Part shown: piece by piece, positions 2,618-23,153 of the stretch
How the letters are laid out: each line of letters begins with the position of its first letter
How positions within the stretch are numbered: the first letter of the stretch is position 1
NCBI GenBank assembly: GCA_038109085.1
Contig: JAYNIL010000005.1
Coordinates: 11,869 to 35,868, forward strand
Length of the DNA: 24,000 nucleotides
Reading direction: 5' to 3'
From: Chloroflexota bacterium
GTDB lineage: Bacteria; Chloroflexota; Dehalococcoidia; Lucifugimonadales; Australimonadaceae
Translations under genes and position numbers: made by a program
Notes under the pieces: model-generated
What the model saw: only the letters and a program-made list of their open reading frames with translations
Database searches by the model: none
Told to the model about the DNA's origin: nothing

Positions 2618-2727
2618 ATGGCAGGCCCCATCCGCATCGAGCGTGACGGCCCCGTCTTCGCGCCTCGCTGGGCGCTCAATGTGGGGCCGGTAGCCCCGTT
2701 CGTGCTACATCCGTTCACGGCGGGGCT

Positions 2728-2756: not shown

Positions 2757-2762
2757 CCGCCC

Positions 2763-4789: not shown

Positions 4790-4813
4790 TTTTGCGTGAG
4801 ATGAGCTAGCCCC

Positions 4814-6226: not shown

Positions 6227-6258
6227 GTTTCCCGCTCAGCTTGCGCCTGGCTCGGATG

Positions 6259-6275
6259 GAGGGGGACACCCCCTC
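6259..6275 (+). terminator. GC hairpin downstream of E2 (GAGGGGG-ACA-CCCCCTC)
   Basis: 7-bp perfect stem with a 3-nt loop, 33 nt after the E2 stop. No U-tract follows. Two further small hairpins lie at 6311-6327 (GGAGAGG-TGC-CCTCTCC) and 6363-6378. Confidence 0.35.
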
Positions 6276-6376
6276 GGCTCGCGCTGACACGCTGGGCCTA
6301 CACCCAGCGGGGAGAGGTGCCCTCTCCTACTGCACCCCTCTAGCCCGGACGAACGTCGGTTCAGGGGGAAGCCCCC

Positions 6377-6715
6377 CTAGTCTTCGCCCTCGATGAAGCG
6401 CTGGATGAGCCGGGCCAGCGCCTCGGCACTTGCGCGCTCTAGCCCGTGGGCGTAGGTAGGCACCGCCACCAGCCGTCCGTGGGGCAGGAGCCCGGTGACC
6501 TCCTCCACCTAGCGGTGGGGGACGATGGTGTCCTGCTCGCGCTGCGCCTGCAATCCCGTGGTCAGCGTCTGCCACTCGGTCTGCACGTCCTCCACCTGCT
6601 GCTAGAGCACGGCGACGTCGGTGGCCATGTCCTAAGTGGTGGTGTGGTGCTCCGGGTGCTACGGGTGCTACGGGTGCGCATCTGGAGCGTGAGTGGGGTG
6701 GGGTTCGGTGCTCAT
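6377..6715 (-). pseudogene. Gene remnant (alpha/beta-hydrolase-like C-terminus) with five in-frame TAG codons
   Basis: Minus-strand frame from ATG 6715 to TAG 6379-6377 reads MSTEPHPTHAPDAHP*HP*HPEHHTTT*DMATDVAVL*QQVEDVQTEWQTLTTGLQAQREQDTIVPHR*VEEVTGLLPHGRLVAVPTYAHGLERASAEALARLIQRFIEGED*. About 88% of codons end in G/C (13 of 112 end in A/T, hand count), so this is the coding-like frame. The tail resembles the Asp...His C-terminal third of alpha/beta hydrolases. There is no SD, and the N-terminal two-thirds of such a protein is missing. Confidence 0.4.
6646..6678. repeat. 9-bp tandem repeat GGTGCTCCG GGTGCTACG GGTGCTACG GGTGCG
   Basis: Read directly from the sequence. On the minus strand it encodes HP*HP*HPE(H), so it carries two of the five TAG codons of the remnant. 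Confidence 0.7.
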
Positions 6716-6819
6716 GGCGCAACGGTACGGCGCAGGGCGTTGCCAGTAAACCCAACACGCCGCCTGGCGCGCGCGCTCTGGGTGTGGCAGCATGGGGCAA
6801 TCCCCCCCAGGAGGCCGCC

Positions 6820-7992
6820 GTGCCCGCCGAGATGCCCCTGCGCTATGGCATGAACCCCCACCAGAAGCCCGCGCGGGCCTTTGTGGAGCAGGGCGGGTTG
6901 CCCTTCGTGGTGCGCAACGGCTCGCCGGGGTACATCAACCTGCTGGACGCCCTCAATTCCTGGCAGTTGGTGCGTGAGCTGAAGGAGGCGACGGGGCTGC
7001 CTGCCGCAGCCTCCTTCAAGCACGTGAGCCCCGCCGGGGCCGCCGTGGCGGTGCCCCTGTCCGAGGCGCTGGCCCAGGCCTGCTCCGTGGGGGGGTTGGA
7101 GCTCTCGCCCCTGGCCACGGCGTACGCCCGGGCGCGCGGCGCCGACCGGGTCTCTTCCTTCGGCGATTGGGCGGCAATGTCCGATGTGGTGGACGAGTCC
7201 GCCGCCTGGCTGCTCCGCCGCGAGGTGTCCGATGGGGTGGTGGCCCCCGGCTACACGCCGGAGGCGCTGGAGATACTCACCAAGAAGCAGAACGGGCGCT
7301 ACTGCCTGCTGGAGGCGGACCCCGCCTACGTGCCGGCGCCCCTGGAACGGCGAACCGTCTACGGGGTGCAGCTGGAGCAGGGGCGCAACGAGGTGAAGGC
7401 CTCGGACGAGCAGCTAGCCAACGTGGTCACCCAGGACAAGACCCTCCCCGATGGGGCGCGCCGTGACCTGAAGGTGGCCCTCGCCACGCTCAAGTACACC
7501 CAGTCCAACTCCATGTGTCTGGCGGTGGACGGGCAGGCCATCGGCGTGGGCGCGGGGCAGCAGTCCCGAATCCACTGCACGCGCCTGGCTGGGGACAAGG
7601 CCGACCGCTGGTACCTGCGCCAGCACCCCCGGGTGCTGGGCCTGCGCTTCCGCGAGGGGCTGGGCCGTCCGGAGCGTGACAACGCCATCGACGGCTACCT
7701 GCGCGACGACCTCTCTCCCGCCGAGGAGGAGGTGTGGCGCGCCGCCTTCGCCGAGGTGCCCACGCGCCTCACGCGGGAGGAGCGCCGGGAATGGCTGGAC
7801 GGGCTGCAGGACGTGGCCATGGGCTCCGATGCCTTCATCCCGTTCCGGGACAACATCGATAGAGCCGCCATGAGCGGGGTGCGATACGTGGTGCAGCCGG
7901 GCGGCTCCGTGCGTGACCAGGACGTGGTGGACGCCGCCGACGCCTACGCCATGGTGATGGCCCTCTCCGGCGTGCGCCTCTTCCACCACTAG
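6820..7992 (+). CDS. purH: AICAR formyltransferase-domain-only PurH paralog (no IMP cyclohydrolase/MGS domain)
   Basis: ORF 6784..7992. The best start is GTG 6820, 5 nt after AGGAGG at 6809-6814; ATG 6832 is the alternative. The protein begins at the AICARFT signature (PLRYGMNPHQ) and stays homologous to the C-terminus (GVGAGQQSR, GSDAFIPFRDNID, VVQPGGSVRD, RLFHH). KHVSPAGAAV replaces the usual KH.NPCG motif, and there is a ~70-aa insertion before GSDAF. Confidence 0.8.
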   Translation: MPAEMPLRYGMNPHQKPARAFVEQGGLPFVVRNGSPGYINLLDALNSWQLVRELKEATGLPAAASFKHVSPAGAAVAVPLSEALAQACSVGGLELSPLATAYARARGADRVSSFGDWAAMSDVVDESAAWLLRREVSDGVVAPGYTPEALEILTKKQNGRYCLLEADPAYVPAPLERRTVYGVQLEQGRNEVKASDEQLANVVTQDKTLPDGARRDLKVALATLKYTQSNSMCLAVDGQAIGVGAGQQSRIHCTRLAGDKADRWYLRQHPRVLGLRFREGLGRPERDNAIDGYLRDDLSPAEEEVWRAAFAEVPTRLTREERREWLDGLQDVAMGSDAFIPFRDNIDRAAMSGVRYVVQPGGSVRDQDVVDAADAYAMVMALSGVRLFHH

Positions 7993-7995
7993 GCC

Positions 7996-8688
7996 ATGGC
8001 CATCTCCGGACAGGCGGTGTGGCTGGGCGTGGGCGTGGACTACGCGTCTGCCCTGGCACTGCAGCACAGCCTCTGCGCCGACCGCGCCGAGGGGCGCACC
8101 TCCGACACCCTGCTGCTGCTGGAGCATGCGCCCGTCTACACCGCGGGGCGTCGCTCGTTGGACGAGCACGTCCTGGGTGCGCTCCCCGCGCCACTGGTGG
8201 AGAGCGATAGGGGTGGGCAGACCACCTACCACGGCCCCGGCCAGCTGGTCGGCTACCCCATCCTTGCGCTCACGGGCCTGGGCATGGGCCCACGCGCCTA
8301 TGTGCGGGCGCTGGAGGGCGCGCTCATCGCCGCTCTGGCGGGATGGGGCGTGCAGGCCTGGCGCGAGGAGGGGCTCACCGGGGTCTGGACGGACGGGGGG
8401 AAGATAGCCGCCATGGGCGTGCGGGTGAGCAGGGGGGTGGCGATGCACGGCTTCGCTCTCAACGTCACCACGGACCTGGGTGCCTATGGTCCAATCATCC
8501 CCTGCGGTATCGCCGACCGGCCCGTCACCTCGCTGGCGGCGCTCACCGGGGCTCCACCGCCCATGACCACGGTGCGCGCGGGCGTGACGGCGCACCTGGG
8601 CGAGGCGTTGGGCATCGCGTGGGCCGAGCGCGAACCGGGCGCGGTAGGTTGGCCGCGCGGGGACGGAGTGGCCCGGAACCCGCGCTGA
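7996..8688 (+). CDS. lipB: Octanoyltransferase (lipoyl(octanoyl) transferase) LipB
   Basis: 230-aa ORF with LLLLEHAPVYTAGRR, GGQTTYHGPGQLVGYPIL, KIAAMGVRVSRGVAMHGFALNV and IIPCGI. The start lies 3 nt after the purH-like stop. Confidence 0.9.
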   Translation: MAISGQAVWLGVGVDYASALALQHSLCADRAEGRTSDTLLLLEHAPVYTAGRRSLDEHVLGALPAPLVESDRGGQTTYHGPGQLVGYPILALTGLGMGPRAYVRALEGALIAALAGWGVQAWREEGLTGVWTDGGKIAAMGVRVSRGVAMHGFALNVTTDLGAYGPIIPCGIADRPVTSLAALTGAPPPMTTVRAGVTAHLGEALGIAWAEREPGAVGWPRGDGVARNPR

Positions 8689-8694
8689 GCATTA

Positions 8695-8723
8695 TTGCAC
8701 TGTGAGGTTTGCCTTCCTAGAAT
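8695..8723 (+). promoter_or_regulatory. Sigma70-like promoter TTGCAC-N17-TAGAAT
   Basis: TTGCAC is at 8695-8700 and TAGAAT at 8718-8723, with exactly 17-nt spacing. It is followed by the GGAGGGGG SD and ATG 8751. Confidence 0.45.
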
Positions 8724-8750
8724 CGGTCCCGACCAACGCAGGAGGGGGCC

Positions 8751-9452
8751 ATGCCCGCCGTCCGCGAACTCCTTGAGCTCCAGGGTATCGACGTTGAGCT
8801 GGCCGCCGGGCGCAGGCGCCTGGCGCAGATCGCCGAGGCGCTCGCCGATGACCAGGAGGTGCGCGCGCTTCGCGCCGAGGCGGTGCGCCTCACCAAGGCA
8901 GCCGAGGGCGTGGACGGGCGCCAGAAGGAGCAGGAGGAGGCCATCGCTTCCCTCTCGGCGCGCATCGAGGCGGCTGAGACCAGGCTGTTCGGCGGCACCG
9001 TCACAAGTCCCCGCGAGCTCACGGACCTGCAGACCGACATCGCCATGCTCCAGCGCCAGCGCGGCGAGCACGAGGACGTGCTGCTGACGGTGCTGGAGGA
9101 GGCCGAGGCGGCCCAGAAGGCGCGCCGGCGAGCAATGGGCACTTACAAGAAGGCCAATACCGAGCGCGAGGCGCAGACCGAGACGCTCCGGGACGAGCAA
9201 TCAGCACTCCAGGCCACGTTGGCGGGTCAGGAGGCGGCGCGGGCTACATGCACCGCCGCTCTCCCGCCCGCAGAGCTGGGCCTGTACGAGCAGGCGCGCA
9301 AGGCCAACGGCGTGCGCGGGGCCGCCCGCATGCGCAACGGCACCTGTGAGAACTGTCGCGTCGGCCTGCCCACCCGCCTGGCCCAGGAGGTACGCACCTC
9401 CCCCAATCCCGTCCGCTGCCCCTCTTGCGGGCTGATTCTGCTGGACGCCTGA
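8751..9452 (+). CDS. COG1579-type coiled-coil protein with C-terminal C4 zinc ribbon
   Basis: 233-aa ORF. Contains a long Ala/Glu/Arg/Gln-rich coiled coil, then CENCRVGLP...CPSCGLIL (CxxC-N21-CxxC). Confidence 0.8.
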   Translation: MPAVRELLELQGIDVELAAGRRRLAQIAEALADDQEVRALRAEAVRLTKAAEGVDGRQKEQEEAIASLSARIEAAETRLFGGTVTSPRELTDLQTDIAMLQRQRGEHEDVLLTVLEEAEAAQKARRRAMGTYKKANTEREAQTETLRDEQSALQATLAGQEAARATCTAALPPAELGLYEQARKANGVRGAARMRNGTCENCRVGLPTRLAQEVRTSPNPVRCPSCGLILLDA

Positions 9453-10834
9453 TGCGCGCCCTTGGCTACTTCACCATCGAGCAGGGGCCGGAAACGGGCC
9501 CGCGCGGGGCCAAGACCCTCGCGAATGCCTTCCAGCGCTATTGCGGCGAGGAGCGCCACCAGCCCATCGCCACCTACCACGACGTGGACGGCTCCGACGC
9601 ACGCCCGCGCTGGACTGAGATGGTGGAGGGGATCCGCGCCAAGGGTGCGGGTTACCTGGTGGTGGTGCCCCATGCCGGGCACCTGGGTAAGTCCCTGGAG
9701 GAGCAGGTGGGCCGGGTTCTGGAGCTGGACCGGCTCAACTGCTCGGTGGCCTGCACCGATGCGGAGTGGCCCGACCCGCTCCAGAATGCGCTGCACCTGC
9801 ACGACACGGGTTCGGCGTCCTCGCGCCGTGGCGAGCGCATCCGCCAGGCGATGCGGGCCAAGGCGGCCAATGGGCTGGGTCTCGGCAAGCCGCCCTACGG
9901 CTACCGGCTGCTGTGGGACGGGTCGTTTGCCGTGGTGCCCCAGGAGGCCGAGGTGGTGCGGGAGATATTCCGCCTCTACGGCGAGGAGGACGGCGGCGGC
10001 GTGCGAGCCATCGCCCAGGAGCTGAACCGCCGTGGTCTGCGCACCCGATCGGGCAGGGCGTGGAGCATGGTCACCGTGCGCGACCTGCTGCGCAACACTG
10101 CCTACATCGGAACGTACCGCCGCTTCGGCCTGCGCATTCCCTCAACCTACCAGGCGCTGCTGAGCCCCGCCGAGTTCCGCAAGGTGCAGGACCGCATGGA
10201 CGCGCGTAGCCCCGGCCGCCGGCACGCCAAGGCTGAGCCGTTCCTGCTCTCTGGGCTGCTGTATTGCGGGCACTGCGGCCAGCGCATGCTGGGTGTGGTG
10301 CGCCGCCAGAGCTGGCAGCGCAAGGGGTTCGGGCGGGTGCGGGGTGAGTACCGCTACTACCAGTGCCAATCGCGCATCAACCTGGGCAAGTGCGCCTACC
10401 GCACCACCCGCGCTGCGCCGCTGGAGGAGACGGTGCTCTCCCAGGTGCGCGAGCTGATGCCCGAGGAGCGAGCGCTGGAGGCCTCGGACGGGCAGGGGCT
10501 CGCCGCCGACGGCATGGCCAAGGCGGACGCACGGCTGCGCTCGTTGGACAAGCGCGCCGTTGAGCTGGTGCGCCAGGCCGCCACGGGCGCAGCGCCACTG
10601 GCTCAGCTACGCGCTGGCCTGTTGGGCGTTGAGCAGGAGCGCCGTGCCCAGCGCACGCGCCAACAGCGCATGGCGGCGGGCGAGAACGGCGTGCGCGCCC
10701 TTATGGAGGAGCAGCGCGACAAGCTCCACTACCTGTGGGAAGACATGGACGTCGCCGAGCGCCAGGAGGCCCTGCGCACCCTGGTGGAGAAGGTCGTGGT
10801 GAAGGACGGTGCAGCACGGGTGGTGCTGCGCTAG
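9452..10834 (+). CDS. Large serine recombinase homolog (resolvase-like + recombinase + zinc-ribbon + coiled-coil) with substituted catalytic residues
   Basis: ORF 9425..10834. The likely start is ATG 9452, overlapping the upstream TGA (TGATG). The recombinase domain (GKPPYGYRL...VVREIFRLY...AIAQELNRRGLRTRSGRAWSMVTVRDLLRNTAYIGTY) and zinc ribbon (LLYCGHCGQRM...YRYYQCQSR...GKCAYR) are clear. The N-terminal domain reads MRALGYFTIEQG and AGHLGK where YxRVSTxxQ and DRLSR are expected. Confidence 0.8.
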   Translation: MRALGYFTIEQGPETGPRGAKTLANAFQRYCGEERHQPIATYHDVDGSDARPRWTEMVEGIRAKGAGYLVVVPHAGHLGKSLEEQVGRVLELDRLNCSVACTDAEWPDPLQNALHLHDTGSASSRRGERIRQAMRAKAANGLGLGKPPYGYRLLWDGSFAVVPQEAEVVREIFRLYGEEDGGGVRAIAQELNRRGLRTRSGRAWSMVTVRDLLRNTAYIGTYRRFGLRIPSTYQALLSPAEFRKVQDRMDARSPGRRHAKAEPFLLSGLLYCGHCGQRMLGVVRRQSWQRKGFGRVRGEYRYYQCQSRINLGKCAYRTTRAAPLEETVLSQVRELMPEERALEASDGQGLAADGMAKADARLRSLDKRAVELVRQAATGAAPLAQLRAGLLGVEQERRAQRTRQQRMAAGENGVRALMEEQRDKLHYLWEDMDVAERQEALRTLVEKVVVKDGAARVVLR

Positions 10835-10862
10835 TCCTTTCCCCGTTGCTCTCCGGCCTATC

Positions 10863-10868
10863 TATAAT
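10863..10868 (+). promoter_or_regulatory. TATAAT -10 box for rnpB
   Basis: A perfect TATAAT ends 7 nt upstream of the first base (10875) that can pair in helix P1. No convincing -35 element was found. Confidence 0.4.
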
Positions 10869-10874
10869 GGAAGG

Positions 10875-11262
10875 GCGCCGAGACCCCCGGGCGGTCGCCG
10901 CCGCGCTTCGGCGCGGGGGAGGAAAGTCCGGGCTCCACAGGGCACGGTGCTGGCCAACCGCCAGGCGTCGCGAGGCGACGGACAGTGCCACAGAGACGAG
11001 AGCGCCTATGGCCCTACGGGGCACAGGCAAGGGTGAAAAGGTGCGGTAAGAGCGCACCAGGCCCTCTGGCGACAGGGGGTGCTGGAAAACCCCACCGGGA
11101 GCAAGGCCAAATAGGGGGACACCGGCTCCGGCCGGAGCGGCGGCCCGTCCGCGTCCCCGGGTAGGCTGCTTGAGCCCGCTGGCAACGGCGGGCCTAGAGA
11201 GATGACCGCCCCCTCGGTGCGCCGAGGGACAGGACCCGGCTTATAGGGGGTCTCGACGCACG
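10875..11262 (+). ncRNA. rnpB: RNase P RNA, bacterial type A
   Basis: Contains the universally conserved blocks GGAGGAAAGTCCGGGCTCCACAGGGCA, ACAGTGCCACAGAGA, GGCAAGGGTGAAAAGGTGCGGTAAGAGCGCACC, GGGAGCAAGGCCAAATAGGGGG, CCCGGGTAGGCTGCTTGAGCC and ACAGGACCCGGCTTATAG. Helix P1 pairs 10875-10888 with 11246-11259 (13 of 14 bp). Confidence 0.95.
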
Positions 11263-11263
11263 T

Positions 11264-11291
11264 AGCGGCGCAGCCTTATGGCTGCGCCGCT
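11264..11291. terminator. Perfect 12-bp hairpin (AGCGGCGCAGCC-TTAT-GGCTGCGCCGCT) between convergent rnpB and the metE-like gene
   Basis: Read directly from the sequence. It lies 2 nt after the rnpB 3' end and 18 nt after the metE-like stop. There is no U-tract on either strand, so it may act bidirectionally or be Rho-assisted. Confidence 0.5.
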
Positions 11292-11309
11292 GGCGTGAGG
11301 GGCCAATCC

Positions 11310-12347
11310 CTACTCCACACCCAGTTCTGCACGTACCAGCGCGGTGCCCGCCACCAGCGCCTGGAGCTTGCGGAAGGCGACCTCGCGCGGCAGGTACTTC
11401 ATGCCGCAGTCGGGCGCGGGAATCAGGCGCTCTGGCGGCACGTACTTGAGCGCGTTGCGCAGCCGTCCCGCCACGGTCTCCGGCGTTTCCGGCGTCAGGT
11501 CGTTCAGGTCCAGGACGCCCAGGATGATGGTCTTCTCGCCCAGCTCGCGCATGATGGACAGATCCAGTCCCGACTGGGCTGACTCGATGGCTATCTGCTG
11601 CACGTTGGCCTCGGCCAGCTCCGGCAGGAACGAGTAGCCGGAGGGGCGCTCGTGGACGATGTGCGCGTAGCCGAAGCACAGGTGCACCGCAGTGGTGCCC
11701 TGCACGCCCTCCAGCGCCCGGTTGAGCGCCTTTACGGCATACTCGCGCGCCTTGTCCGGCCGCGCCTGCATGTAAGGCTCGTCCAGCTGCACCACGTCGG
11801 CGCCCGCCGCGAACAGGTCGCGCATCTCCTGGTTCACGGCCTCGGCGTAGTCCATGGCCGCGGCCTCGTCGCTGTCGTAGTGGTCGTTCTGCGCCTGCTG
11901 GGTCATGGTGAAGGGGCCCGGCAGCGTGATCTTCACCTGCCGGTCGGTGTTGGCCCGCAGGAAGCGCACGTCCTCCACCTCGCGGGGTGCGATGCGGCGT
12001 ATGGGCCCGCTGATGCGCGGGACGGGATTAGGGTGTCCGGTGCGGTCCAGCGCCGTGCCGGGGTTCTTCACGTCGACACCGTCGAGGGAGTTGGAGAAGC
12101 GGTTGGAGTAGCTCTCCCGGCGCTGCTCGCCGTCGCTGATTATGTCCACCCCCGCGCGCTCCATGTCGCGTATCGCCAGGAGGGTGGCGTCGTCCTGCGC
12201 CTGCGCCAGCCATTCGGGCGCCACGCGCCACAGTTCGCTCGCCCCCACGCGGGGCGGCAGGCGCTTGCCCAGGGCCGCACGGTCCACCAGCCACTCCGGC
12301 TGGGGGTAGGAACCGACCACCGTCGTGGGCAGGAGCCGCTCGGCCAT
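11310..12347 (-). CDS. Cobalamin-independent methionine synthase family protein, short (MetE C-terminal-domain-only) form
   Basis: ORF 11310..12461. The preferred start is ATG 12347 (GGAGGTG SD, 5-nt spacer), giving MAERLLPTTVVGSYPQPEWL... Zn-ligand contexts VHLCFGY and PDCGMK are present. Stop is TAG. Confidence 0.85.
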   Translation of the reverse strand: MAERLLPTTVVGSYPQPEWLVDRAALGKRLPPRVGASELWRVAPEWLAQAQDDATLLAIRDMERAGVDIISDGEQRRESYSNRFSNSLDGVDVKNPGTALDRTGHPNPVPRISGPIRRIAPREVEDVRFLRANTDRQVKITLPGPFTMTQQAQNDHYDSDEAAAMDYAEAVNQEMRDLFAAGADVVQLDEPYMQARPDKAREYAVKALNRALEGVQGTTAVHLCFGYAHIVHERPSGYSFLPELAEANVQQIAIESAQSGLDLSIMRELGEKTIILGVLDLNDLTPETPETVAGRLRNALKYVPPERLIPAPDCGMKYLPREVAFRKLQALVAGTALVRAELGVE

Positions 12348-12424
12348 CAGCGCACCTCCGGCGGGGGCACTAGGCCTTCCCGCTCTCTCGCATGAACCAT
12401 ACACGCAGCGGGGCCCACGCAGCA

Positions 12425-12533
12425 TGAGGCCCGCAGGCACACCGCGGAGAGCAGGGGCCACCGCCCACCCACATCCCTCATCGAGGCGGGCGGTGGCAGG
12501 GGAAAGGTGTCGCGGGGCGCGCTGCGGGCCTCA
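12425..12533 (-). other. Structured intergenic RNA element: 12-bp long-range helix enclosing a 12-bp hairpin
   Basis: On the minus-strand transcript, UGAGGCCCGCAG (12533-12522, including the heliorhodopsin TGA) is perfectly complementary to CUGCGGGCCUCA (12436-12425). Inside it, CCACCGCCCGCC (12496-12485) pairs with GGUGGGCGGUGG (12469-12458). That pairing has one G-U on this strand, which would be an A-C mismatch on the other strand. Confidence 0.35.
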
Positions 12534-13304
12534 GCCCGTCGGGGCCAGCGTTGCCCCGAAAACCTGCCAGGCCAGCGCCGACTTGGCGGTGAGGCTCAGG
12601 AGGATGTAGGTGGACTCACCGAACAGGTAGGAGCGCCACGGCCCAACCCGCCGGTACTGGAGCACCATGTTCACCGCGAAGGCGTTGAAGAAGGCGAAGA
12701 GCGAGAAGAAGATCGCGTACACGAAGGCCGGAGGCTCCGCCGCCACGCCAGGGCTCCACAGGTAGATGGCGATGGCGGCCCACGGCGCCGCGCCCACCAG
12801 CACGCCGAAGTTATAGGAGAGCCAGCGCGGACGTCCGGGCGACTCGTAGTGCTCCATCAGCAGGCCAAACAGGATCATCCCTGCGTTGGCGGCCCCCAGG
12901 CCCACCAGCGCGGCCACATCGCCGATGCCCGTGAGCAGAGCGATGAGCAGCACCATGAGCGTGGAGCTCACGGAGTACTCGATCCAGCGCGCGTAGTTGC
13001 GGCCCTTGGCCAGGTTCCCGGTGTACCAGCCGAACACCCCCGGCAGCACCAGCACCGCGTGGGCGGCGGCGGAGAGCAGCAGGAAGCCCGCCACGCCCCA
13101 CGCCAGCGAGGCATCGAACAGGTGCGTCACGGTGGGCTCCCCCACGCCGGGCGGGCCGCTCATGAAGGTGGCGAACACCGGTAGGGTGAACTCCGTCGCC
13201 AGGGCGAGCACCACCACGGCCTGGGCCAGGTGGAACGCGCCCATCACCCCGTTATACAGGCGCAGGCGCCCCTGGGCCCGCTGCGTTATCGTCGTGGCGG
13301 TCAT
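12531..13304 (-). CDS. Heliorhodopsin (7-TM retinal protein)
   Basis: ORF 12531..13370. The preferred start is ATG 13304 (GAGGAGGA SD, 6-nt spacer), giving 257 aa. It aligns along its full length with heliorhodopsin 48C12 as I recall it. Matching segments are LYNGVMGAFHLAQAVVVLALATEFTLP, SGPPG, ARWIEYSVSSTLMVLLIALLTGIGDVAALVGLGAANAGMILFG, FVYAIFFSLFAFFNAFAV and YILLSLTAKSALAWQVFGATL (Schiff-base Lys). Confidence 0.9.
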   Translation of the reverse strand: MTATTITQRAQGRLRLYNGVMGAFHLAQAVVVLALATEFTLPVFATFMSGPPGVGEPTVTHLFDASLAWGVAGFLLLSAAAHAVLVLPGVFGWYTGNLAKGRNYARWIEYSVSSTLMVLLIALLTGIGDVAALVGLGAANAGMILFGLLMEHYESPGRPRWLSYNFGVLVGAAPWAAIAIYLWSPGVAAEPPAFVYAIFFSLFAFFNAFAVNMVLQYRRVGPWRSYLFGESTYILLSLTAKSALAWQVFGATLAPTG

Positions 13305-13366
13305 CCTCGTCCTCCTCGTTCTCACGCCCATCGCGTTCATCGTACCGACCAGCGGCCAAGCTGCCC

Positions 13367-14839: not shown

Positions 14840-14939
14840 GGATAGGTCACCTTTCGTCCGGACCTGGCACCCGTCGTGGCCGGTGCCAGCCTCAACTCAT
14901 GTCTGCATGGTATACGTGGGGCGTTGGGCCCTTTCGGGT

Positions 14940-15098
14940 CCCAATAAATCCGAAGATCAACTACGCAGCGAGGCTATGCCCTCAGGAGAATGTTATCCAA
15001 GCTGGTTTGTTCGCATTGATGTGTTTTGATTGAAACAAATAGGAATTATGTGTATAAAAAAATCCACAGTCAAGTCCTGGGCGTCGTAAGGAGTCAAC
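14940..15098. promoter_or_regulatory. AT-rich divergent control region between the SDR-DUF2867/heliorhodopsin operon and the B12-XRE regulator
   Basis: This is by far the most AT-rich stretch of the window. It contains inverted repeats TGTTT-N6-AAACA (15022-15037) and TTTGTT...AACAAA (15006-15011 / 15034-15039), and ATGTGT twice (15019-15024, 15048-15053). A weak minus-strand promoter candidate is TTGGAT-N18-TAGCCT (15000-14971). Confidence 0.45.
15030..15058 (+). promoter_or_regulatory. Strong sigma70-like promoter TTGAAA-N17-TATAAA for the B12-XRE regulator
   Basis: TTGAAA is at 15030-15035 and TATAAA at 15053-15058, with exactly 17-nt spacing. It is followed ~30 nt later by AAGGAG (15088-15093) and ATG 15099. 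The TGTTT-N6-AAACA inverted repeat overlaps the -35 element. Confidence 0.55.
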
Positions 15099-15976
15099 AT
15101 GCCAATTTCCTCCCACCGCCAACTCCCTTGCCTCACCAACCCGCTCGTCGTCGCCGACGCTACGAACGTGACAGGGGTGATGAAACGGGCCGTCGATTCC
15201 AACCCGCGCATGGAGGCTACATACGTGGATCTCCTGTGTCCGGCGATATAGGTGGTGGGTGAGCGTTGGGCGCCAGGGGCGCCATCACTCCGGAGCACCT
15301 CTCTACGGACCCAGCCCGGCGTCGAATGGAGTCGCTGCGTGAGCGCGTCCCCACTGCCGCGAGCATCGGTCGCTCTGTGCTGGTGGGGGTGGTGCAGCCG
15401 GAGCAGCAGGAGATGGGCGCGCGTATGGTTGCGGAACTGCTGGTCCTAGACGGCTGGTCAGTACATGTTTCGGCCAACCTGCTTGCGCAGGAGTTTGCCA
15501 CCCACGCCCAGTCCCTTTCTCCCGATCTAGTGGTCCTGTCCGTGTTGCTGGAGGGCTCCGCCCCCCAGGCCCGGCGCACAGTGGGTTTACTGCGTGAGAG
15601 GACGCCGGGCACCCCGGTGTTGGTGGCGGGGTTATCCGGACAAGAAATCAGCGCTGATGCCCACGCAGGTGACGAACGTGAGGTGCGTTGGCTCGCCCGC
15701 GACCTGGCGGGCACCTCAGCAAATGAGTACAACCTTGAGGCATTGCTGACTTGCGTAGGAAACGTAGAGCTCGATGCGCGCTGCGCGCGCGGCTGGGAAC
15801 GACAACAGCTGGCCCAGGCGGTGGGCATAGACCGGGCGTATTTGTCGGGATTGGAGAACGGGCGGAAGAATCCCACCCTGGGTATCCTTCTCCGGGTGGC
15901 TGCGGCGCTCAAGGTGCCGGTGGCACGGCTGATGGAGGAGAGGATACCAGTGGGCGGTACACTTTCCCGAAACTGA
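15099..15976 (+). pseudogene. CarH/LitR-like B12-binding module (helical bundle + Rossmann B12 domain) fused to a C-terminal XRE-type HTH; reading frame interrupted
   Basis: ATG 15099 with a near-ideal SD opens a 50-codon frame: MPISSHRQLPCLTNPLVVADATNVTGVMKRAVDSNPRMEATYVDLLCPAI. That frame hits TAG at 15249-15251 and continues as VVGERW. The rest (track ORF 15266..15976, TTG start) is in another frame: ...GAITPEHLSTDPARRRMESLRERV...SVLVGVVQPEQQEMGARMVAELLVLDGWSVHV...PDLVVLSVLL...VLVAGLSG, then the HTH GWERQQLAQAVGIDRAYLSGLENGRKNPTLGILLRVAAALKVPVARL. Joined, the two pieces reconstitute a B12-binding_2-like bundle (PAl..vGerW....EH). Confidence 0.55.
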
Positions 15977-16180: not shown

Positions 16181-17494
16181 ATGAGCACGTGCCGAGAGCG
16201 TGAACTGGAGAGGCGGGCGACGGGGAGGCGAATCGCCGTGGTGGGTGGCGGTATCAGCGGCATTGCTGCGGCGCTGCGCGCCCGGGATAGTGGGCACGCG
16301 GTGACGCTCTTCGAGGCGGAGCCAATCTTGGGTGGTCACGCGCGCACGCTCTCCGTGGAGAGCGCGGATGGCCCGAGCAGCCTGGACACCGGCTTCCTCG
16401 TTTATAACGAGGCGACCTACCCCGGCTTCACCGGATTCCTCCAGCGGCTGGGGGTGCAGACACAGCGTTCGGACATGTCCTTTGGCGCCAGTTGCCCACA
16501 GCATGGGTTCGAATACGGGAGCCGTGGGCTGCGCAGCATGCTTGCCCAGCCGTCCAACCTGCTGCGCCCCGGCAGGGTGCGCATGTTGGCGGACTTCCTG
16601 CGTTTCTACCATGCGAGTGGGGCGGCGCTCCGTGAGCCCGCAGCAGCACCCGCCACCTTGGGTGGGCTGCTGGCCGATGGGTACGGCAACGAGTTCCGGG
16701 ACCACTTCTTAGTGCCGCTGATCTCCGCGGTTTGGTCTATGCCCGCAGGGCGTGTTGGGGACTTCCCTCTGGCGTTCCTGCTCCGCTTCCTGGCCAACCA
16801 CGGGCTGCTCTCAGTGGGCGGACGGTTGCCCTGGCGCACTGTGACCGGGGGCTCAAGGTCCTACGTCGATCGCGCTGCTGTGCTGCTGGGTGACGGGGTT
16901 CGCCTGGGGACCCCGGTGCGTACAGTGCGCCGTGACAGGTTAGGGGTCAGCGTGGTGAGCGGTTCGGGAACGGAGCGATTTGACGCGATCGTGCTCGCCA
17001 CCCACGCCGACGTTTCGCTTCGCCTGCTGGAGCGTCCGTCGTCGGTGGAGCGACGCGCACTAAAGGCGCTGGCGTACTCGCCCTCCCGGGTGGTCACCCA
17101 CACCGACGCGGGGCTGATGCCCCGCCGGCGCGCGGCGTGGTGTTCGTGGAACTACCGTTCAACATCCTGTGGCGATGGCGATTCTGGCGTGTCGGTGACC
17201 TACCATCTGAACCGGCTCCAAGGATTGAAGGTTCGGCAGAACTACTTCGTTTCGGTGAACCCCAGCAGTGAGCCTGCGCCGGGGACGGTGCTGGACGAGA
17301 CAGTGATGTCCCACCCGCTTTACACAGAGGCCTCGGTGGGTGCGCAGGCTGCGTTGCGGTCGGTGGGTGGCGCGTTGCGGACCGCCTACGCAGGGGCCTA
17401 CCTGGGCCACGGCTTCCACGAGGACGGCTACCGCTCCGGCGTCGAGGCGGTCGACGCATTGGCCGGCTTGACCGCGTTGGTGGGGGCGGCCTGA
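16181..17494 (+). CDS. FAD/NAD-binding amine-oxidase / phytoene-desaturase-like oxidoreductase (COG2907 type)
   Basis: 437-aa ORF with GAGGAG SD. Dinucleotide motif is RIAVVGGGISGIAAALRA...VTLFEAEPILGGHA. It is the usual partner of DUF1365. Its stop overlaps the next start (TGATG at 17492-17496). Confidence 0.85.
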   Translation: MSTCRERELERRATGRRIAVVGGGISGIAAALRARDSGHAVTLFEAEPILGGHARTLSVESADGPSSLDTGFLVYNEATYPGFTGFLQRLGVQTQRSDMSFGASCPQHGFEYGSRGLRSMLAQPSNLLRPGRVRMLADFLRFYHASGAALREPAAAPATLGGLLADGYGNEFRDHFLVPLISAVWSMPAGRVGDFPLAFLLRFLANHGLLSVGGRLPWRTVTGGSRSYVDRAAVLLGDGVRLGTPVRTVRRDRLGVSVVSGSGTERFDAIVLATHADVSLRLLERPSSVERRALKALAYSPSRVVTHTDAGLMPRRRAAWCSWNYRSTSCGDGDSGVSVTYHLNRLQGLKVRQNYFVSVNPSSEPAPGTVLDETVMSHPLYTEASVGAQAALRSVGGALRTAYAGAYLGHGFHEDGYRSGVEAVDALAGLTALVGAA

Positions 17495-18240
17495 TGGACG
17501 CACCGCTGCTGCTCACCGGCACGCTGACCCACCAGCGCTCTGGCCCTGCCGCCGGTGGGTTCTCCCACGCAACGCGCTACCTGCTCACAGACCTGGCCTC
17601 ACCCCCCTCCCGCCGATGGGGCCCACTATGGGGTGGGGAGGGTCTGGGGCTCTACGGCCTGCGCTCGCAGCATCTGTGGGACGGGGCCACTGGGTTCGCG
17701 GCCATCCGTAAGGGTCTCATCGGGTCTGGTGAGCGGGTGCTGCTGCTCACTCAGCCTCACCTGCTGGGCTATGTATTCAACCCCCTCTCGCTCTACTTGG
17801 TGGTGGAGGACGGGCCCCCGGTGGAGCGCGCCCGCGTGCGCCGAGTGGTGGCCGAGGTGAGCAACCGCCACGGCGGCCGCCACCGCTATGACCTCACCGC
17901 AAAAGCCCCGCTGCCGGGCCGGTTCGAGGCGTCCTTCTCCAAGGAGTTCTACGTCTCGCCGTTCCAACCGATGGAGGGTGAGTACCGTCTAGAGCTGACC
18001 TTCGGGGGGGAAGAGCTGAGAGTGCAAGTCAGCTTCCAGGGATTGGGAGGGGAGGGGCTGGATGCCCGGCTGAGCCTGCATGCGGAGCCCTTCACCGGCA
18101 ACGCGCTGGCCCGCACAGCGCTGCGTCAGCCTCTCACCCCCTGGGCCACCACCGCTAACATCTACGGGCACGCGGTAAGGCTGGCCCTGCGGGGCGCACG
18201 CTACCGGCGGCCATCCGAACGGGAGCAGCACGGTGGCTAG
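17494..18240 (+). CDS. DUF1365 family protein
   Basis: 248-aa ORF with GTLTHQRSGP..GFSHATRYLLTDL, LLTQPHLLGYVFNPLSLYLV, AEVSNRHGGRHRYDL and KEFYVSPFQPMEGEYRLEL, matching the DUF1365 pattern. Confidence 0.8.
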   Translation: MDAPLLLTGTLTHQRSGPAAGGFSHATRYLLTDLASPPSRRWGPLWGGEGLGLYGLRSQHLWDGATGFAAIRKGLIGSGERVLLLTQPHLLGYVFNPLSLYLVVEDGPPVERARVRRVVAEVSNRHGGRHRYDLTAKAPLPGRFEASFSKEFYVSPFQPMEGEYRLELTFGGEELRVQVSFQGLGGEGLDARLSLHAEPFTGNALARTALRQPLTPWATTANIYGHAVRLALRGARYRRPSEREQHGG

Positions 18241-19006
18241 GCGCAGGGTTTGGCGGGGCCAGCACGTGTGGGTCGTGGGCGGCGGCAGTGGCATTGGGCG
18301 CGGGGTCGCCGCGGCTCTCGCTGGTCGAGGGGCAGCGGTGACTGTGAGTGCACGGTCGGCGGACGCGCTCCGCCACCTTGCCGCGGAGGTAGCGGACGAC
18401 GGCGGGGCGGTTTTCCCGCTCCCTCTTGACGTAGGGGACGTCCTCGCCCTGCACGCCGGATGGGAGCGACTTTGCGCCGATCGCGGCGTGCCGGATGCGG
18501 TGATCTACTGCGCCGGTGCCTGGGAACCCGCCTCCGTGGTCAAGCTCGACTACGCTCTGGACACGCAGGTGTCGGCCAACTTCACTGGACTCGTGCGTGT
18601 GGCGGCGTTGGTTGTCCCAGCGATGCGCGAGCGTGGCGAGGGACTGTTGGTGGGGTTCTCCTCCGCCAGCGCTCTGCTGGCCTTGCCCCGTGCCGAGATA
18701 TACGGAGCGACCAAGGCCGCGGCCACTTACTTCCTGCGCTCCCTACGTTTGGACCTGCGCCGTTCGGGGGTGCGGGTGGTGACGGTGCACCCGGGGTTCG
18801 TACGCACCCCACTGACGGAGCACAACGATTTTGCAATGCCCGCGCTTCTGGAGCCGGAGCAGGCGGTGGCGGCCGTGCTCAGGGGCATCGAGCGAGGGCG
18901 TACCCAAGTGGACTTCCCTGGCAGGCTTCTCTGGCCCATCAAGCTCGCCGGTGCGCTCCCCCGTCCTGTGGGTGAGTGGCTCATCGCGCGTCTATTCAGG
19001 AGGTAG
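18233..19006 (+). CDS. Short-chain dehydrogenase/reductase
   Basis: 257-aa ORF. GTG 18233 overlaps the DUF1365 stop by 8 nt. Contains VVGGGSGIGRGVA and the catalytic YGATKAA. Confidence 0.8.
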   Translation: MARRRVWRGQHVWVVGGGSGIGRGVAAALAGRGAAVTVSARSADALRHLAAEVADDGGAVFPLPLDVGDVLALHAGWERLCADRGVPDAVIYCAGAWEPASVVKLDYALDTQVSANFTGLVRVAALVVPAMRERGEGLLVGFSSASALLALPRAEIYGATKAAATYFLRSLRLDLRRSGVRVVTVHPGFVRTPLTEHNDFAMPALLEPEQAVAAVLRGIERGRTQVDFPGRLLWPIKLAGALPRPVGEWLIARLFRR

Positions 19007-19008
19007 AC

Positions 19009-19440
19009 ATGGCCCGCTACACAGCCGTTATCCGGTCGGCGCGCAGCGCCTTCGACACCTTTGCCTATATGGCGGACTTTACCAACGCGGCCGCATGGGA
19101 CCCCGGCGTACTCGCCGCGCGGCGTCTAGACGAGGGCCCGGCGGCGATCGGGTCCCGGTTCGCCCTCGATTTCCGATTTGGAGGCTCAACCGTTCCACTC
19201 GAGTACAAGATCCTGGCGCTGGAGCCTGGACGTGCGGTCACCCTTCGCGCAGAGCGCCCCGCGTTCATCGTGGAGGACGTGATCACCGTCGAGCCCGACA
19301 GTTCCGGAGCGCTGGTGCGCTATCAGGCCACCATGAGCCTGCGCGGGCCGATGCGGCTGCTGTCCCCGGTGCTGGGATTGGTGTTCCGGCGCGGGGCCGC
19401 CCAGGCGGGTCGCTCGCTGGCTCGGCAGTTGGGAGGGTGA
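19009..19440 (+). CDS. SRPBCC (START/Bet v1/polyketide-cyclase-like) small protein
   Basis: ORF 18976..19440. The preferred start is ATG 19009, 6 nt after AGGAGG, giving 143 aa beginning MARYTAVIRSARSAFDTFAYMADFTNAAAWDPGV, typical of SRPBCC ligand-binding proteins. Confidence 0.7.
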   Translation: MARYTAVIRSARSAFDTFAYMADFTNAAAWDPGVLAARRLDEGPAAIGSRFALDFRFGGSTVPLEYKILALEPGRAVTLRAERPAFIVEDVITVEPDSSGALVRYQATMSLRGPMRLLSPVLGLVFRRGAAQAGRSLARQLGG

Positions 19441-19442
19441 GG

Positions 19443-20792
19443 GTGCCCTCCGCTGCGATCTGGTGGGCCCGAACGGACCTACGCTTGGAGGACAACCCGG
19501 CGTTGGCAGCCGCACTCGCCACCGGGTTGCCGGTCCAGGCAGTTTTCGTCTTAGAACCGGAGTTGTGGGCCCCGGAGCGCACAGGCCCTCACCGGTCGTC
19601 GTTCCTTGCCGATGCCCTCCGGGACTTGCATGCCGCGATTTGCGGTCTGGGCGGTGGGTTAGAGGTCATCCAGGGACCGCCTGCGCGAGCGATCGGGGGA
19701 CTCGCAGTGGCGATGGGGGGCGCTCCGGTCTTCACTCAGGCGGGGCATTCGCCCTATGCACGCCGTCAGGAGGCCGCCGTCGAACGGGCCGCCGGGTTGG
19801 TGCGAGTCCCGCCTGCAGCCGTCGCTGCGCCGGGGGTCATCACCCGGGATGATGGCACCCCGTTCACCTTGTTCGCAGCGTTCCATCGGCGCTGGAACGT
19901 CCGCCTGGGCACACTGCCCGAGCCCGCGCCATCCCCCTTGCCCGGACAGCTGTTGGCCGGTGATGCGGCGGGACTCGCCTCACTCCCCCGCCAGGAGCAG
20001 GGCGCGCGGTGCCCCGCCTCCCGCGTGGAGGCGGGGCACCGCCTCCACCGATTCTCAAGCGGCCCCACGCCCCCTGCACACCGCTACCTCAGAGACCGGG
20101 AGCGATTGGACGGGGCCGGAGGCTCCGCGCTCTCACCCTACCTGCGGTTCGGGCTACTGTCCGGCCTCGAGGTGCTGCGCGCCGGGGTGGCAGCACTCGC
20201 GTCCGCGCCGGCTCGATCCGCTGCCACCAGCGCGGAGGCCTGGTTGCGCGAGAACGCGTGGCGAGAGCACCTCGCGGCGCAACTCGCAGCGTGGCCCCAT
20301 CTCACCCGCGCCAATCACGACGCACGGATGGACCGGATCGCCTGGCGCGATGACCCTGATGGTCTTCGCGCCTGGCAGGACGGACGCACCGGCTACCCAC
20401 CCGTCGATGCGGCGATGCGCGAGCTGTCCGCGAGCGGGTGGATCAGCAACCGTGCCCGGATGCTTGCTGCCTCGTTCCTCGTCAAGCACCTGCTCATCGA
20501 TTGGAGGAAGGGTGAGCGCCACTTCAGGCGCCTGCTAGTTGACGCAGAGCCTGCCGCCAATGCCCTTGGCTGGCAGCAGGTAGCCGGATCAGGGCCCGGT
20601 GCGCAACCATGGTTCCGGGTGCTGAACCCGCTGGCGCAGGCCGAGCGCTTCGATCCGGACAACCGTTGGGTGCGGCGTTGGGTACAGGAAGCAGGTTCCG
20701 CTGAGTCAATCGCCCCACTGGTGGAGCATAGCTCAGCCAGGGAACGCGCGATCAGTGTGTACCGTATGGCCATGCGTGGGGAGAGGAAATGA
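19443..20792 (+). CDS. phr: Deoxyribodipyrimidine photolyase (class I CPD photolyase / cryptochrome family)
   Basis: Only the C-terminal 449 codons of track ORF 18831..20792 are real. GTG 19443 sits 5 nt after GGGAGGG and gives VPSAAIWWARTDLRLEDNPAL. Also present are SPYLRFG, TGYPPVDAAMRELSASGWISNRARMLAASFLVKHLLIDWRKGERHF and DAEPAANALGWQQVAGSG...PWFRVLNP. Confidence 0.9.
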   Translation: MPSAAIWWARTDLRLEDNPALAAALATGLPVQAVFVLEPELWAPERTGPHRSSFLADALRDLHAAICGLGGGLEVIQGPPARAIGGLAVAMGGAPVFTQAGHSPYARRQEAAVERAAGLVRVPPAAVAAPGVITRDDGTPFTLFAAFHRRWNVRLGTLPEPAPSPLPGQLLAGDAAGLASLPRQEQGARCPASRVEAGHRLHRFSSGPTPPAHRYLRDRERLDGAGGSALSPYLRFGLLSGLEVLRAGVAALASAPARSAATSAEAWLRENAWREHLAAQLAAWPHLTRANHDARMDRIAWRDDPDGLRAWQDGRTGYPPVDAAMRELSASGWISNRARMLAASFLVKHLLIDWRKGERHFRRLLVDAEPAANALGWQQVAGSGPGAQPWFRVLNPLAQAERFDPDNRWVRRWVQEAGSAESIAPLVEHSSARERAISVYRMAMRGERK

Positions 20793-22562: not shown

Positions 22563-23153
22563 TTGAACCGGCGGGAGGCCCTCACCGACACGGAGCTGGC
22601 GGCGCTGGTGGCCGCGGGTGACGAGGAGGCGCTGGCGGAGCTGTACGGGCGCTACGGGCGCATCGTCTACTCCATGGCCATGAGCTCGCTGCGCGAGCCC
22701 TCCGGCGCCGAGGACGTGACCCAGGAGGTGTTCGCCGCGCTGTGGGTGCGGGCCGGGCGGTTCGACGGTGAGCGGGGGATATTCCGCCACTGGTTCCTGC
22801 ATCTGGCTCACAACCGCATCGTGGATGAGCTGCGACGCCGAAAGCGGGCGGCGCGGTTCGGAGAGGAACTGCCCGACCCGGTATCGGGCGCAGGCCCGGT
22901 GGCCGGGTCGAACACCGCCGACGAGGCGGTGCGAGCGGTGCTCTTCGGCTCGGCGCGTGAGGCGCTGGAGCGCCTGCCGTCCGAGCAGCGCCAGGCTATC
23001 GTGCTGGCCTATCTGGAAGGGGCTACCCAGCAGGAGATATCCCAGCGCACGGGCGCTCCGCTGGGGACGGTGAAGACACGGCTGCGGCTGGGGTTGATGA
23101 AGCTGCGGGCGCACCTGATGCTCCCCCAAGGGACGGAGGGAACGGACGCGTGA
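22563..23153 (+). CDS. ECF-type RNA polymerase sigma factor (SigK-like)
   Basis: 196-aa ORF with a TTG start 6 nt after GGAGG. Region 2 is AEDVTQEVFAALWVRAGRFD...FRHWFLHLAHNRIVDELRRRK. Region 4 is LPSEQRQAIVLAYLEGATQQEISQRTGAPLGTVKTRLRLGLMKLR. Confidence 0.85.
   Translation: MNRREALTDTELAALVAAGDEEALAELYGRYGRIVYSMAMSSLREPSGAEDVTQEVFAALWVRAGRFDGERGIFRHWFLHLAHNRIVDELRRRKRAARFGEELPDPVSGAGPVAGSNTADEAVRAVLFGSAREALERLPSEQRQAIVLAYLEGATQQEISQRTGAPLGTVKTRLRLGLMKLRAHLMLPQGTEGTDA

Follow-up and report, generated by a model that had tools for sequence, protein, structure and literature searches.

Heliorhodopsin (HeR) roles are known for few partners only. HeR binds and modulates photolyase (PMC9769723) as well as glutamine synthetase and an ABC transporter (PMC11109279). 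In the latter work, HeR operons fall into classes that include HeR/"SDR" (short-chain dehydrogenase/reductase), MerR-regulator, and photolyase classes, and "SDR family oxidoreductase" is among ten frequent operon partners (PMC11109279). Here, we describe a HeR gene and its surroundings in a 24,000-nucleotide stretch of a Chloroflexota metagenome-assembled genome (MAG) (assembly GCA_038109085.1, contig JAYNIL010000005.1, positions 11,869 to 35,868 of the forward strand), referred to below as the window. The HeR gene follows a gene for a protein that joins an SDR-like half to a DUF2867 half (SDR-DUF2867, YbjT family), and a decayed CarH-like regulator gene diverges from the pair. With moderate confidence, we regard the product as a functional HeR that would serve as a light sensor in a photoprotection island and act on a cytoplasmic partner, the likeliest being the SDR-START protein (SDR-DUF2867) encoded in the same operon.

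Because the SDR, MerR-regulator, and photolyase classes have already been listed (PMC11109279), the context reported here is a refinement and not a discovery. What is new is the identification of the SDR as a YbjT/DUF2867 fusion that is itself associated with photolyase and B12 clusters, the CarH-type signatures in HeR-adjacent regulators, and the decay of the regulator in this genome. Those signatures, Wx9EH and D/ExHxxG, are the marks of adenosylcobalamin photoreceptors of the CarH type (PMC9304148). Uncharacterized fusions of cobalamin-binding domains with helix-turn-helix (HTH) domains, placed at one end or the other, are known from database mining (PMC11796333), and a link of CarH/LitR-type cobalamin photoreceptors to heliorhodopsin was not found in the literature searched. 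For the YbjT/DUF2867 family, a literature search returned essentially no publications and no member with a known function. The same search found no joint mention of heliorhodopsin and DUF2867; in PMC11109279, DUF2867 is named once, for an Anaerolineales locus of another group.

Results

The heliorhodopsin gene and its product

A first-pass annotation made from the letters of the window had placed a 257-aa HeR in an open reading frame (ORF) whose coordinates we found exactly (Table 1). It left the strand unstated, which is minus; read on the plus strand, the same interval contains a stop, and its translation is not a rhodopsin. All three peptides that it cited occur in the minus-strand translation, and the strings of HeR 48C12 that it had matched to them agree with the 48C12 sequence in the Protein Data Bank (PDB; 6su3/9ljj) as aligned by HMMER. 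The claimed likeness to 48C12 over the whole length is borne out by that alignment (E = 2e-60, query 13-255 against chain 11-255). When the protein was scanned against hidden Markov models (HMMs), as the annotation had advised, the sole significant matches were Pfam PF18761 (E = 4.2e-90, 301.8 bits with the cutoff at 26.7, all 242 profile positions covered) and the NCBIfam equivalog NF038020, "heliorhodopsin HeR" (288.1 bits against a cutoff of 100, profile positions 1-244 of 244). The type-1 rhodopsin family PF01036 (Bac_rhodopsin) gave zero Pfam matches to the protein even at E ≤ 1. A type-1 rhodopsin or another seven-transmembrane family was rejected as the identity, being without an HMM match and similar in fold at a distance only.

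The start codon is supported by relatives, since those with 94%- and 89%-identical HeRs are also called at 257 aa, as is the database entry of the identical protein. We considered a longer, 279-aa form beginning at an in-frame ATG at 13370, which overlaps the stop of the upstream gene as ATGA. It has no homolog support, and it is disfavored by the Shine-Dalgarno sequence at the 13304 start, by the 257-aa length of the homologs, and by a HeR profile match that begins at residue 14.

Residue conservation was read from an alignment of 24 relatives at 62-94% identity, and an AlphaFold2 model was built on the same alignment. The pocket residues named in the first-pass annotation (H23, H80, E107, and K241 of 48C12) correspond to H25, H82, E109, and K241 here and are invariant in the 24-sequence alignment; they are among the 86 alignment-invariant positions, all of which the window HeR keeps. 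K241 sits in the motif SLTAKSALAWQ, aligned to the Schiff-base Lys of 48C12. The model (pLDDT 86.1, pTM 0.84) has seven helices, the first two of which are separated by a beta-hairpin (strands 40-47 and 58-66). As anticipated, K241 falls inside helix 7 (226-250), with the counterion E109 in helix 3 (104-124), H25 in helix 1 (8-35), and H82 in helix 2 (67-85). The ten best Foldseek matches in the PDB are all heliorhodopsins, at template modeling (TM) scores of 0.83-0.88 (48C12 at 0.87-0.88 and TaHeR at 0.84); type-1 rhodopsins score 0.5-0.6 with E of about 1e-3 and 10-18% identity. Because Lys and Arg favor the loops and helix ends of the N-terminal side over those of the other side by 9:0, the N-terminus is predicted to be cytoplasmic and the C-terminus outside, the inverted topology that the annotation had held to be diagnostic. 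A carotenoid-binding fenestration has been proposed for 48C12, formed by F162, C166, G169, F206, N207, and A210 (bioRxiv 10.1101/2025.11.27.691015). Mapped through the 48C12 alignment, the motif is complete in the window HeR as Y164, V168, G171, F206, N207, and A210.

At the level of sequence, the gene is confirmed as a genuine, intact, full-length heliorhodopsin, and the rhodopsin itself is ordinary. Its ortholog in GCA_038147155.1 is 94% identical, and its GC content at third codon positions (GC3) is 0.93, similar to that of host genes. Relatives at E ≤ 1e-10 made up 4533 database clusters. In contigs representing one genome per species, the confirmed HeR loci numbered at least 578, the best at 68% identity, and these relatives came from Dehalococcoidia, Acidimicrobiia, Chloroflexia, and Limnocylindria. 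The rhodopsin adds little by itself, and the NCBI HeR model would name such a gene automatically.

The upstream SDR-DUF2867 gene

The protein encoded upstream of HeR is built of two parts. Its N-terminal half matches PF13460 (NAD_binding_10), PF05368 (NmrA), and PF01370 (Epimerase) over residues 1-119, and its C-terminal half matches PF11066 (DUF2867) over residues 330-466 with 92.5 bits against a cutoff of 27. With both domains found and all family-invariant columns kept, it is a member of the YbjT/DUF2867 family, and close relatives are named "YbjT (DUF2867 family) / YndB AHSA1/START domain" by JGI. The nucleotide-binding motif GATGYVG (GxxGxxG) is present. The classical SDR YxxxK triad is absent; the residues found instead are H122-L-R-S125-R126, invariant across 28 family members. 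Because H-x-x-S-R replaces YxxxK, the protein is, by its motifs, an atypical SDR for which dehydrogenase activity cannot be assumed.

In the AlphaFold2 model (pLDDT 85.5), only the N-terminal ~310 aa superpose in Foldseek on NDUFA9, KstA11, SimC7, and NmrA-like proteins (TMt 0.7-0.79). The C-terminal half follows a beta-alpha-alpha-beta-alpha helix-grip pattern and closes with a helix of 44 residues. Identity to the ortholog is only 79%, against 94% for HeR. The clade of SDR-DUF2867 proteins linked to the window HeR is without an inter-domain segment, VETxWSDAL, that more distant members carry.

Neighborhoods of HeR and SDR-DUF2867 genes

The conservation of this arrangement was surveyed from both sides, in 80 species-level HeR loci with up to 10 kb searched per side and in 80 metagenomic SDR-DUF2867 loci whose flanks extended only ~2.5 kb. 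Among close relatives of the window (HeR identity 89-94%), the conserved core consists of a divergent 283-aa B12/HTH regulator, SDR-DUF2867, and HeR. The gene downstream of HeR varies among them, being either MetE-like or MFS. At L004-L008, where HeR is 89% identical, the stop codon of SDR-DUF2867 overlaps the HeR start by 4 bp.

Across the HeR survey, a homolog of SDR-DUF2867 with both domains (46-62% identity) was found near HeR in 12 of 80 loci, in all 12 within 2.4 kb. These loci belong to Acidimicrobiia, Chloroflexia, Thermoflexaceae, and Dehalococcoidia. The usual order is HeR and then SDR-DUF2867, the two are sometimes divergent, and orientation is variable. Regulators with a B12 domain and the motifs Wx9EH and D/ExHxxG/P were near HeR more often (15/80) and photolyase genes less often (4/80). 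One locus (L027, a Chloroflexota MAG, positions 1-10253) carries a fully co-directional run of genes for amine oxidase, DUF1365 protein, SDR, SRPBCC, an unidentified 1.3-kb stretch, HeR, photolyase, a YbgA-like protein, and SDR-DUF2867, divergent from an XRE-type B12 regulator. This is the gene set of the window with HeR in its middle, in one apparent operon.

Standalone SRPBCC/Polyketide_cyc2 genes were seen 67-78 bp downstream of HeR in L018, L038, L048, and L079. Since both these genes and DUF2867 adjoin HeR, START-like domains are a recurrent HeR neighbor.

The reverse survey gave a different picture of the partner family. HeR was near only 1 of the 80 SDR-DUF2867 loci, which ruled out SDR-DUF2867 as a HeR-specific family. 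A photolyase gene was adjacent in six, and a gene for photolyase, a B12 regulator, amine oxidase, DUF1365 protein, or YbgA adjoined in 13. Given these neighbors, the SDR-DUF2867 family is a general member of light-response clusters, which HeR has joined in some monoderm lineages.

A decayed CarH-like regulator

The regulator gene that diverges from the HeR unit carries three lesions. There is an in-frame TAG at 15249-15251, followed by a 1-nt deletion that leaves the W codon (15264-15266) and the EH codons (15293-15298) 26 nt apart instead of 27 and in different frames, and no intact Wx9EH motif is found. The third lesion replaces the cobalt-ligand His by Gln (CAG at 15407-15409, in PEQQEMG), and the D/ExHxxG motif is likewise lost. 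Intact 283-aa orthologs in L001 (the closest genome) and L004 have ERW-x9-EH and EQHELG along with the same two B12 domains and C-terminal HTH_3. The lower-axial His motifs of orthologs read PEQHELG, PEQHEIG, and PGERHALG, and Wx9EH is intact in L001, L004, and L027. Identity of the window regulator to that of L001 is only 62%, compared with 94% for HeR. Because the regulator is a pseudogene in this genome, the HeR unit is now probably expressed constitutively.

The B12 regulators adjacent to HeR are built on three scaffolds, with an N-terminal HTH_17, a C-terminal XRE HTH, or no HTH. The N-terminal HTH_17 occurs beside the HeRs of nine Chloroflexia species and one member of the Acidimicrobiia, and three loci have regulators with no recognizable HTH. 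The regulator gene lies ~220-235 bp downstream of HeR in L055, L062, L068, L069, L074, L076, and L084; further loci with such regulators are L066, L024, L041, L061, and L027.

Promoter, micro-ORF, and transcription unit

A second decayed element lies between the regulator and SDR-DUF2867. Relatives have an intact micro-ORF of 51-53 aa that encodes a four-Cys zinc ribbon (CPRC...CLQC), with 2 nt separating its end from the start of SDR-DUF2867 (8308-8463 in L001, from 1262 in L004). In the window, its ATG has become TTG, the codon of the first Cys (Cys9) has become TAG, and the third Cys (Cys29) is Arg. The Zn_ribbon match of the L001 micro-ORF is weak and below cutoff.

The promoter-like site upstream agrees with the consensus at 10 of 12 positions; one such site was found compared with 0.2 expected in shuffled sequence, and both the -35 and the -10 hexamer are kept in four loci (the window, L001, L004, and L005). 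It sits in a 260-bp AT-rich divergent spacer of a genome with 69% GC. A search of this spacer for operator repeats returned weak or short repeats only, and we claim no operator. Since the genes share a strand, the gap before HeR is 62 nt, SDR-DUF2867 and HeR overlap by 4 bp in L004-L008, and the hexamers are conserved, the promoter, micro-ORF, SDR-DUF2867, and HeR would make up one short transcription unit with HeR last, and we infer co-transcription.

A candidate intrinsic terminator after HeR was discarded, as its 14-bp hairpin has no T-tract and does not exceed shuffled sequence (z = -1.2), and the terminator scanner found none. The MetE-like gene beyond is probably outside the HeR unit. 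It is present only in the close relatives L001, L002, and L090, where it is called at 345 aa (the equivalent start here is ~12347). As a conserved HeR partner it was rejected, being found in 0 of 80 distant HeR loci and replaced by an MFS transporter gene in L004.

Table 1. Features of the HeR locus and of the adjoining part of the window, in window coordinates.
Feature	Position	Strand	Remarks
MetE-like (Meth_synt_2) gene	11310..12461	minus	Co-directional, downstream of HeR
Heliorhodopsin coding sequence	12531..13304	minus	257 aa; coordinates include the stop codon; H25, H82, E109, and K241 present
Shine-Dalgarno sequence GAGGAGG	13311..13317	minus	6 nt before the HeR ATG (13304-13302); read from sequence
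SDR-DUF2867, YbjT family, 490 aa	13367..14839	minus	Co-directional, upstream of HeR; 62-nt gap
Zinc-ribbon micro-ORF remnant	14840..15000	minus	Alignment and codon-level comparison with relatives
Sigma-70-like promoter TTGACT-17-CATAAT	15045..15073	minus	Points to the zinc-ribbon remnant, SDR-DUF2867, and HeR
CarH-like regulator pseudogene	15099..15976	plus	B12-binding_2, B12-binding, and C-terminal XRE-type HTH_3; divergent from the HeR unit
Flavin amine oxidase	16181-17494	plus	Pfam/NCBIfam
DUF1365 protein	17494-18240	plus	Pfam/NCBIfam
SDR	18233-19006	plus	Pfam/NCBIfam
SRPBCC/Polyketide_cyc2, 154 aa	18976-19440	plus	Between SDR and photolyase
DNA photolyase	about 19440-20792	plus	Best resembles class I / 8-HDF-type models
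Extracytoplasmic function (ECF) sigma factor (SigK-like) and RskA/zf-HC2 anti-sigma factor	22563-23956	plus	Kept in L001, at 96% and 88% identity

The remainder of the window

For the gene map, real genes were told from shadow ORFs by GC3 and then identified by Pfam and NCBIfam scans. The first-pass annotation had seen no retinal or carotenoid synthesis gene in the window, and none was found when all coding-like ORFs were scanned. The flavin amine oxidase was considered as a CrtI-type carotenoid desaturase. The crtI match covers only the 40-residue FAD-binding N-terminus and reaches 28 bits against a cutoff of 238, and this identity is disfavored further by the company of DUF1365, SDR, and photolyase genes, with which the gene also travels in L027.

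Segment 13367-22327 has a GC3 of 0.72-0.82, compared with 0.87-0.93 in its flanks and 0.86-0.95 in the L001 orthologs. Nucleotide identity to L001 falls from ~90% to ~75% exactly at the HeR/SDR-DUF2867 boundary. The step and the low GC3 could stem from recombination from a lower-GC relative or from relaxed selection.

In L001, the place of the block running from amine oxidase to photolyase is taken by a YbgA-like gene and a response regulator gene. To the right of the photolyase gene lie another SDR gene, a MOSC protein gene, and the ECF sigma/anti-sigma pair; the Streptomyces LitR regulon relies on LitS, itself a sigma factor of the ECF type (PMC11519972). The left part of the window (2-1750 on the minus strand and 1751-9452 on the plus strand) is given to ordinary metabolism, with genes for the large subunit of a molybdenum hydroxylase (truncated at the window edge), a class II aldolase, the E1alpha, E1beta, and E2 components of a 2-oxoacid dehydrogenase, an AICARFT-like protein, a lipoate ligase, and a CT398-like coiled-coil/zinc-ribbon protein. 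A large serine recombinase gene follows (9425-10834). When 9425-11310 of the window is set against 12009-19120 of L001, the window is missing a cassette of SRAP, ImuB-like (IMS), a 95-aa ORF, and a DnaE2-like error-prone polymerase that L001 has between the recombinase and the MetE-like gene.

Discussion

The reading we favor is that the window HeR senses light on behalf of a cytoplasmic partner. K241 would carry retinal through a protonated Schiff base whose counterion is E109, and light would give rise to a long-lived photoproduct. This photoproduct would alter the Arg/Lys-rich cytoplasmic loops and, through them, modulate partner proteins in the cytoplasm; the HeR would not pump ions. We propose modulation through basic loops because published HeRs modulate photolyase, glutamine synthetase, and an ABC transporter. 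Characterized HeRs typically absorb in the green, at about 540-560 nm. Activated by green light, the window HeR would act on a partner for which the leading candidate is the SDR-START protein of the same operon. The photoprotection island comprises the HeR unit together with the amine oxidase, DUF1365, SDR, SRPBCC, and photolyase genes, and the ancestral HeR unit would have been repressed in the dark by the divergently encoded CarH-like adenosylcobalamin photoreceptor. We infer the repressor role of the regulator, sensing in place of pumping, and the putative contact between HeR and its partner.

Several points weigh against this picture. A 2025 preprint (bioRxiv 10.1101/2025.11.27.691015) sees HeRs as carotenoid-antenna light harvesters, not sensors. 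The SDR-DUF2867 family is very large, with all but one of 8000 scored candidates at E<1e-20, and it is also present in diderm phyla that are free of HeR. Since SDR-DUF2867 shares only 79% identity with its ortholog and the nucleotide identity drops at the HeR boundary, the two genes may have different histories in this genome. The promoter is recognized by its consensus match only, and the 3' end of the HeR unit has no terminator signal (hairpin z = -1.2, no T-tract). The regulator lesions are read from one MAG assembly, and the independent contig L090 ends before the region. An assembly artifact is nevertheless unlikely, because the regulator and the adjacent micro-ORF together carry six independent lesions.

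In a first alternative, regulation is all that HeR and SDR-DUF2867 share; they would sit in one light-stress regulon without interacting, and HeR would act elsewhere or alone, for example as a carotenoid antenna. Because HeR is near only 1/80 partner-family loci, the pairing may indeed reflect shared regulation and not physical coupling; the family clusters with photolyase and B12 regulator genes even without HeR (13/80 loci, against 1/80 with HeR), and the order of HeR and SDR-DUF2867 is not fixed. The spacing of the genes speaks for a closer tie, as the 4-bp overlap in L004-L008 and gaps of 29-36 bp in L066 and L029 point to tight co-expression, and in none of the 12 co-occurrences is the distance to HeR more than 2.4 kb. 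The antenna variant fits the complete fenestration motif of the window HeR (Y164, V168, G171, F206, N207, A210), although for bacterial HeRs its basis is docking and sequence motifs in the preprint. Overall, we consider regulation without interaction somewhat unlikely. Our doubts are greater for a role as photolyase helper, in which HeR would bind the photolyase of the island and boost or spectrally broaden DNA photorepair. The model is TfHeR of Trichococcus flocculiformis, which binds its photolyase with a Kd of 21.7 uM and activates it ~3-fold (PMC9769723). In the window, a photolyase is encoded ~6 kb away in the same island; elsewhere, HeR is followed by one after 16 bp in L027 and, on the convergent strand, after 36 bp in L028, and L018 and L068 also have one near HeR. 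However, the window photolyase gene is on the opposite strand and in a different transcription unit, its product resembles the class I / 8-hydroxy-5-deazaflavin (8-HDF) type and not the class II cyclobutane pyrimidine dimer (CPD) photolyase of TfHeR, and proximity of HeR to photolyase was seen in 4/80 loci against 12/80 for SDR-DUF2867. Such a role is unlikely on this evidence.

The partner could instead serve the chromophore. The SDR-START protein (and, beside other HeRs, the standalone SRPBCC proteins) would then supply or carry it, through retinol/retinal redox chemistry or the carriage of retinoids or carotenoids. Helix-grip START-like folds bind lipids and isoprenoids, and the partner joins such a domain to a nucleotide-binding SDR fold. 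Genes for retinal or carotenoid biosynthesis are absent from the window, a negative that covers the window only, as blh or crt genes could lie elsewhere in the genome, and the SRPBCC genes 67-78 bp downstream of HeR in L018, L038, L048, and L079 point in the same direction. Against this, every member of the family has His and Arg in place of the catalytic Tyr and Lys of classical SDRs, organisms that lack HeR widely possess the family, and the ligand of the SDR-START protein is hypothetical. We regard chromophore handling as quite improbable. That HeR is a relic, decaying or without function as are the regulator and micro-ORF beside it, is disfavored and in our estimate very nearly out of the question. 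In favor of this reading, two adjacent elements are pseudogenes, and GC3 is atypically low over the flanking 13.4-22.3 kb. The HeR ORF, on the other hand, is intact, shares 94% identity with its ortholog, keeps all 86 invariant positions and a GC3 of 0.93, and is preceded by a strong Shine-Dalgarno sequence.

The sensor reading can be carried further, to a proposal that we put forward as speculative and think unlikely to hold. HeR and the YbjT-type SDR-START protein would form an unrecognized two-component photosensory module of monoderm Chloroflexota and Actinomycetota, and the whole module would lie within a B12 photoregulon of the CarH type. Once activated by light, HeR would gate the binding of nucleotide or lipid by the SDR-START protein, an NDUFA9/NmrA-like redox sensor in this proposal, or the SDR-START protein would load the HeR chromophore. 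If this were true, retinal and adenosylcobalamin photoreceptors would be wired in series, DUF2867/YbjT would gain a first function, and HeRs would gain a new class of effector. Whatever the mechanism, the locus and its relatives offer a recurrent and tractable association of HeR with YbjT/DUF2867, START-like proteins, and regulators of the cobalamin photoreceptor type. The loss of the regulator and micro-ORF while HeR was conserved also provides a natural comparison that bears on whether the expression of HeR responds to light.

Comparison with described systems

HeR 48C12, from a freshwater actinobacterial fosmid (PDB 6su3, 6su4, 6uh3, 9ljj), is 43-44% identical to the window HeR when structurally aligned (root-mean-square deviation 2.6 Å). 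The two share the R104/W105/E107/Y108 block (RWIEY), S237, the fenestration residues, the beta-hairpin between the first two transmembrane helices, and the N-in topology. The window HeR differs in coming from another phylum (a Chloroflexota MAG), in a 2-residue deletion in the loop preceding helix 6, and at positions 211-214, which read VNMV here and LVQY in 48C12. Gln at position 213 is thereby replaced by Met, which is invariant in the clade. In 48C12, Q213 forms part of the wall of a polar cavity close to the retinal ring, and the change in the window clade could affect color tuning.

The upstream protein has the same domain organization as E. coli YbjT and the DUF2867 family, and its likeness to NDUFA9 (the 39-kDa subunit of complex I) and to NmrA-like atypical SDRs is confined to its N-terminal half. 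In gene arrangement, the closest match is the HeR/"SDR" class of PMC11109279, in which HeR is co-directional with an SDR-annotated gene and often overlaps it by 4 nt, as it does in L004-L008. That class is found mostly in Rhodococcus and Nocardioides and is defined by an annotation string only.

The intact orthologs of the regulator share with CarH/LitR (TtCarH, PDB 5C8D; PMC9304148) the four-helix-bundle and Rossmann B12 domains and both photoreceptor signatures, and CarH is likewise divergent from light-protection genes. They differ in their HTH, which, as in the window remnant, is a C-terminal XRE/HTH_3 domain and not an N-terminal MerR domain, of which none was detected, and the window copy is a pseudogene.

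The TfHeR-photolyase system (PMC9769723) likewise has a HeR encoded in a DNA-photorepair context. Its operon consists of HeR, DUF2238, and the class II CPD photolyase, whereas the operon partner in the window is SDR-DUF2867 and the photolyase, of another class, is encoded in a separate, oppositely oriented unit. TfHeR acts as a light-dependent helper of a soluble enzyme through its charged cytoplasmic loops, and this is the mechanism that we have taken over for the window HeR and its candidate partner.

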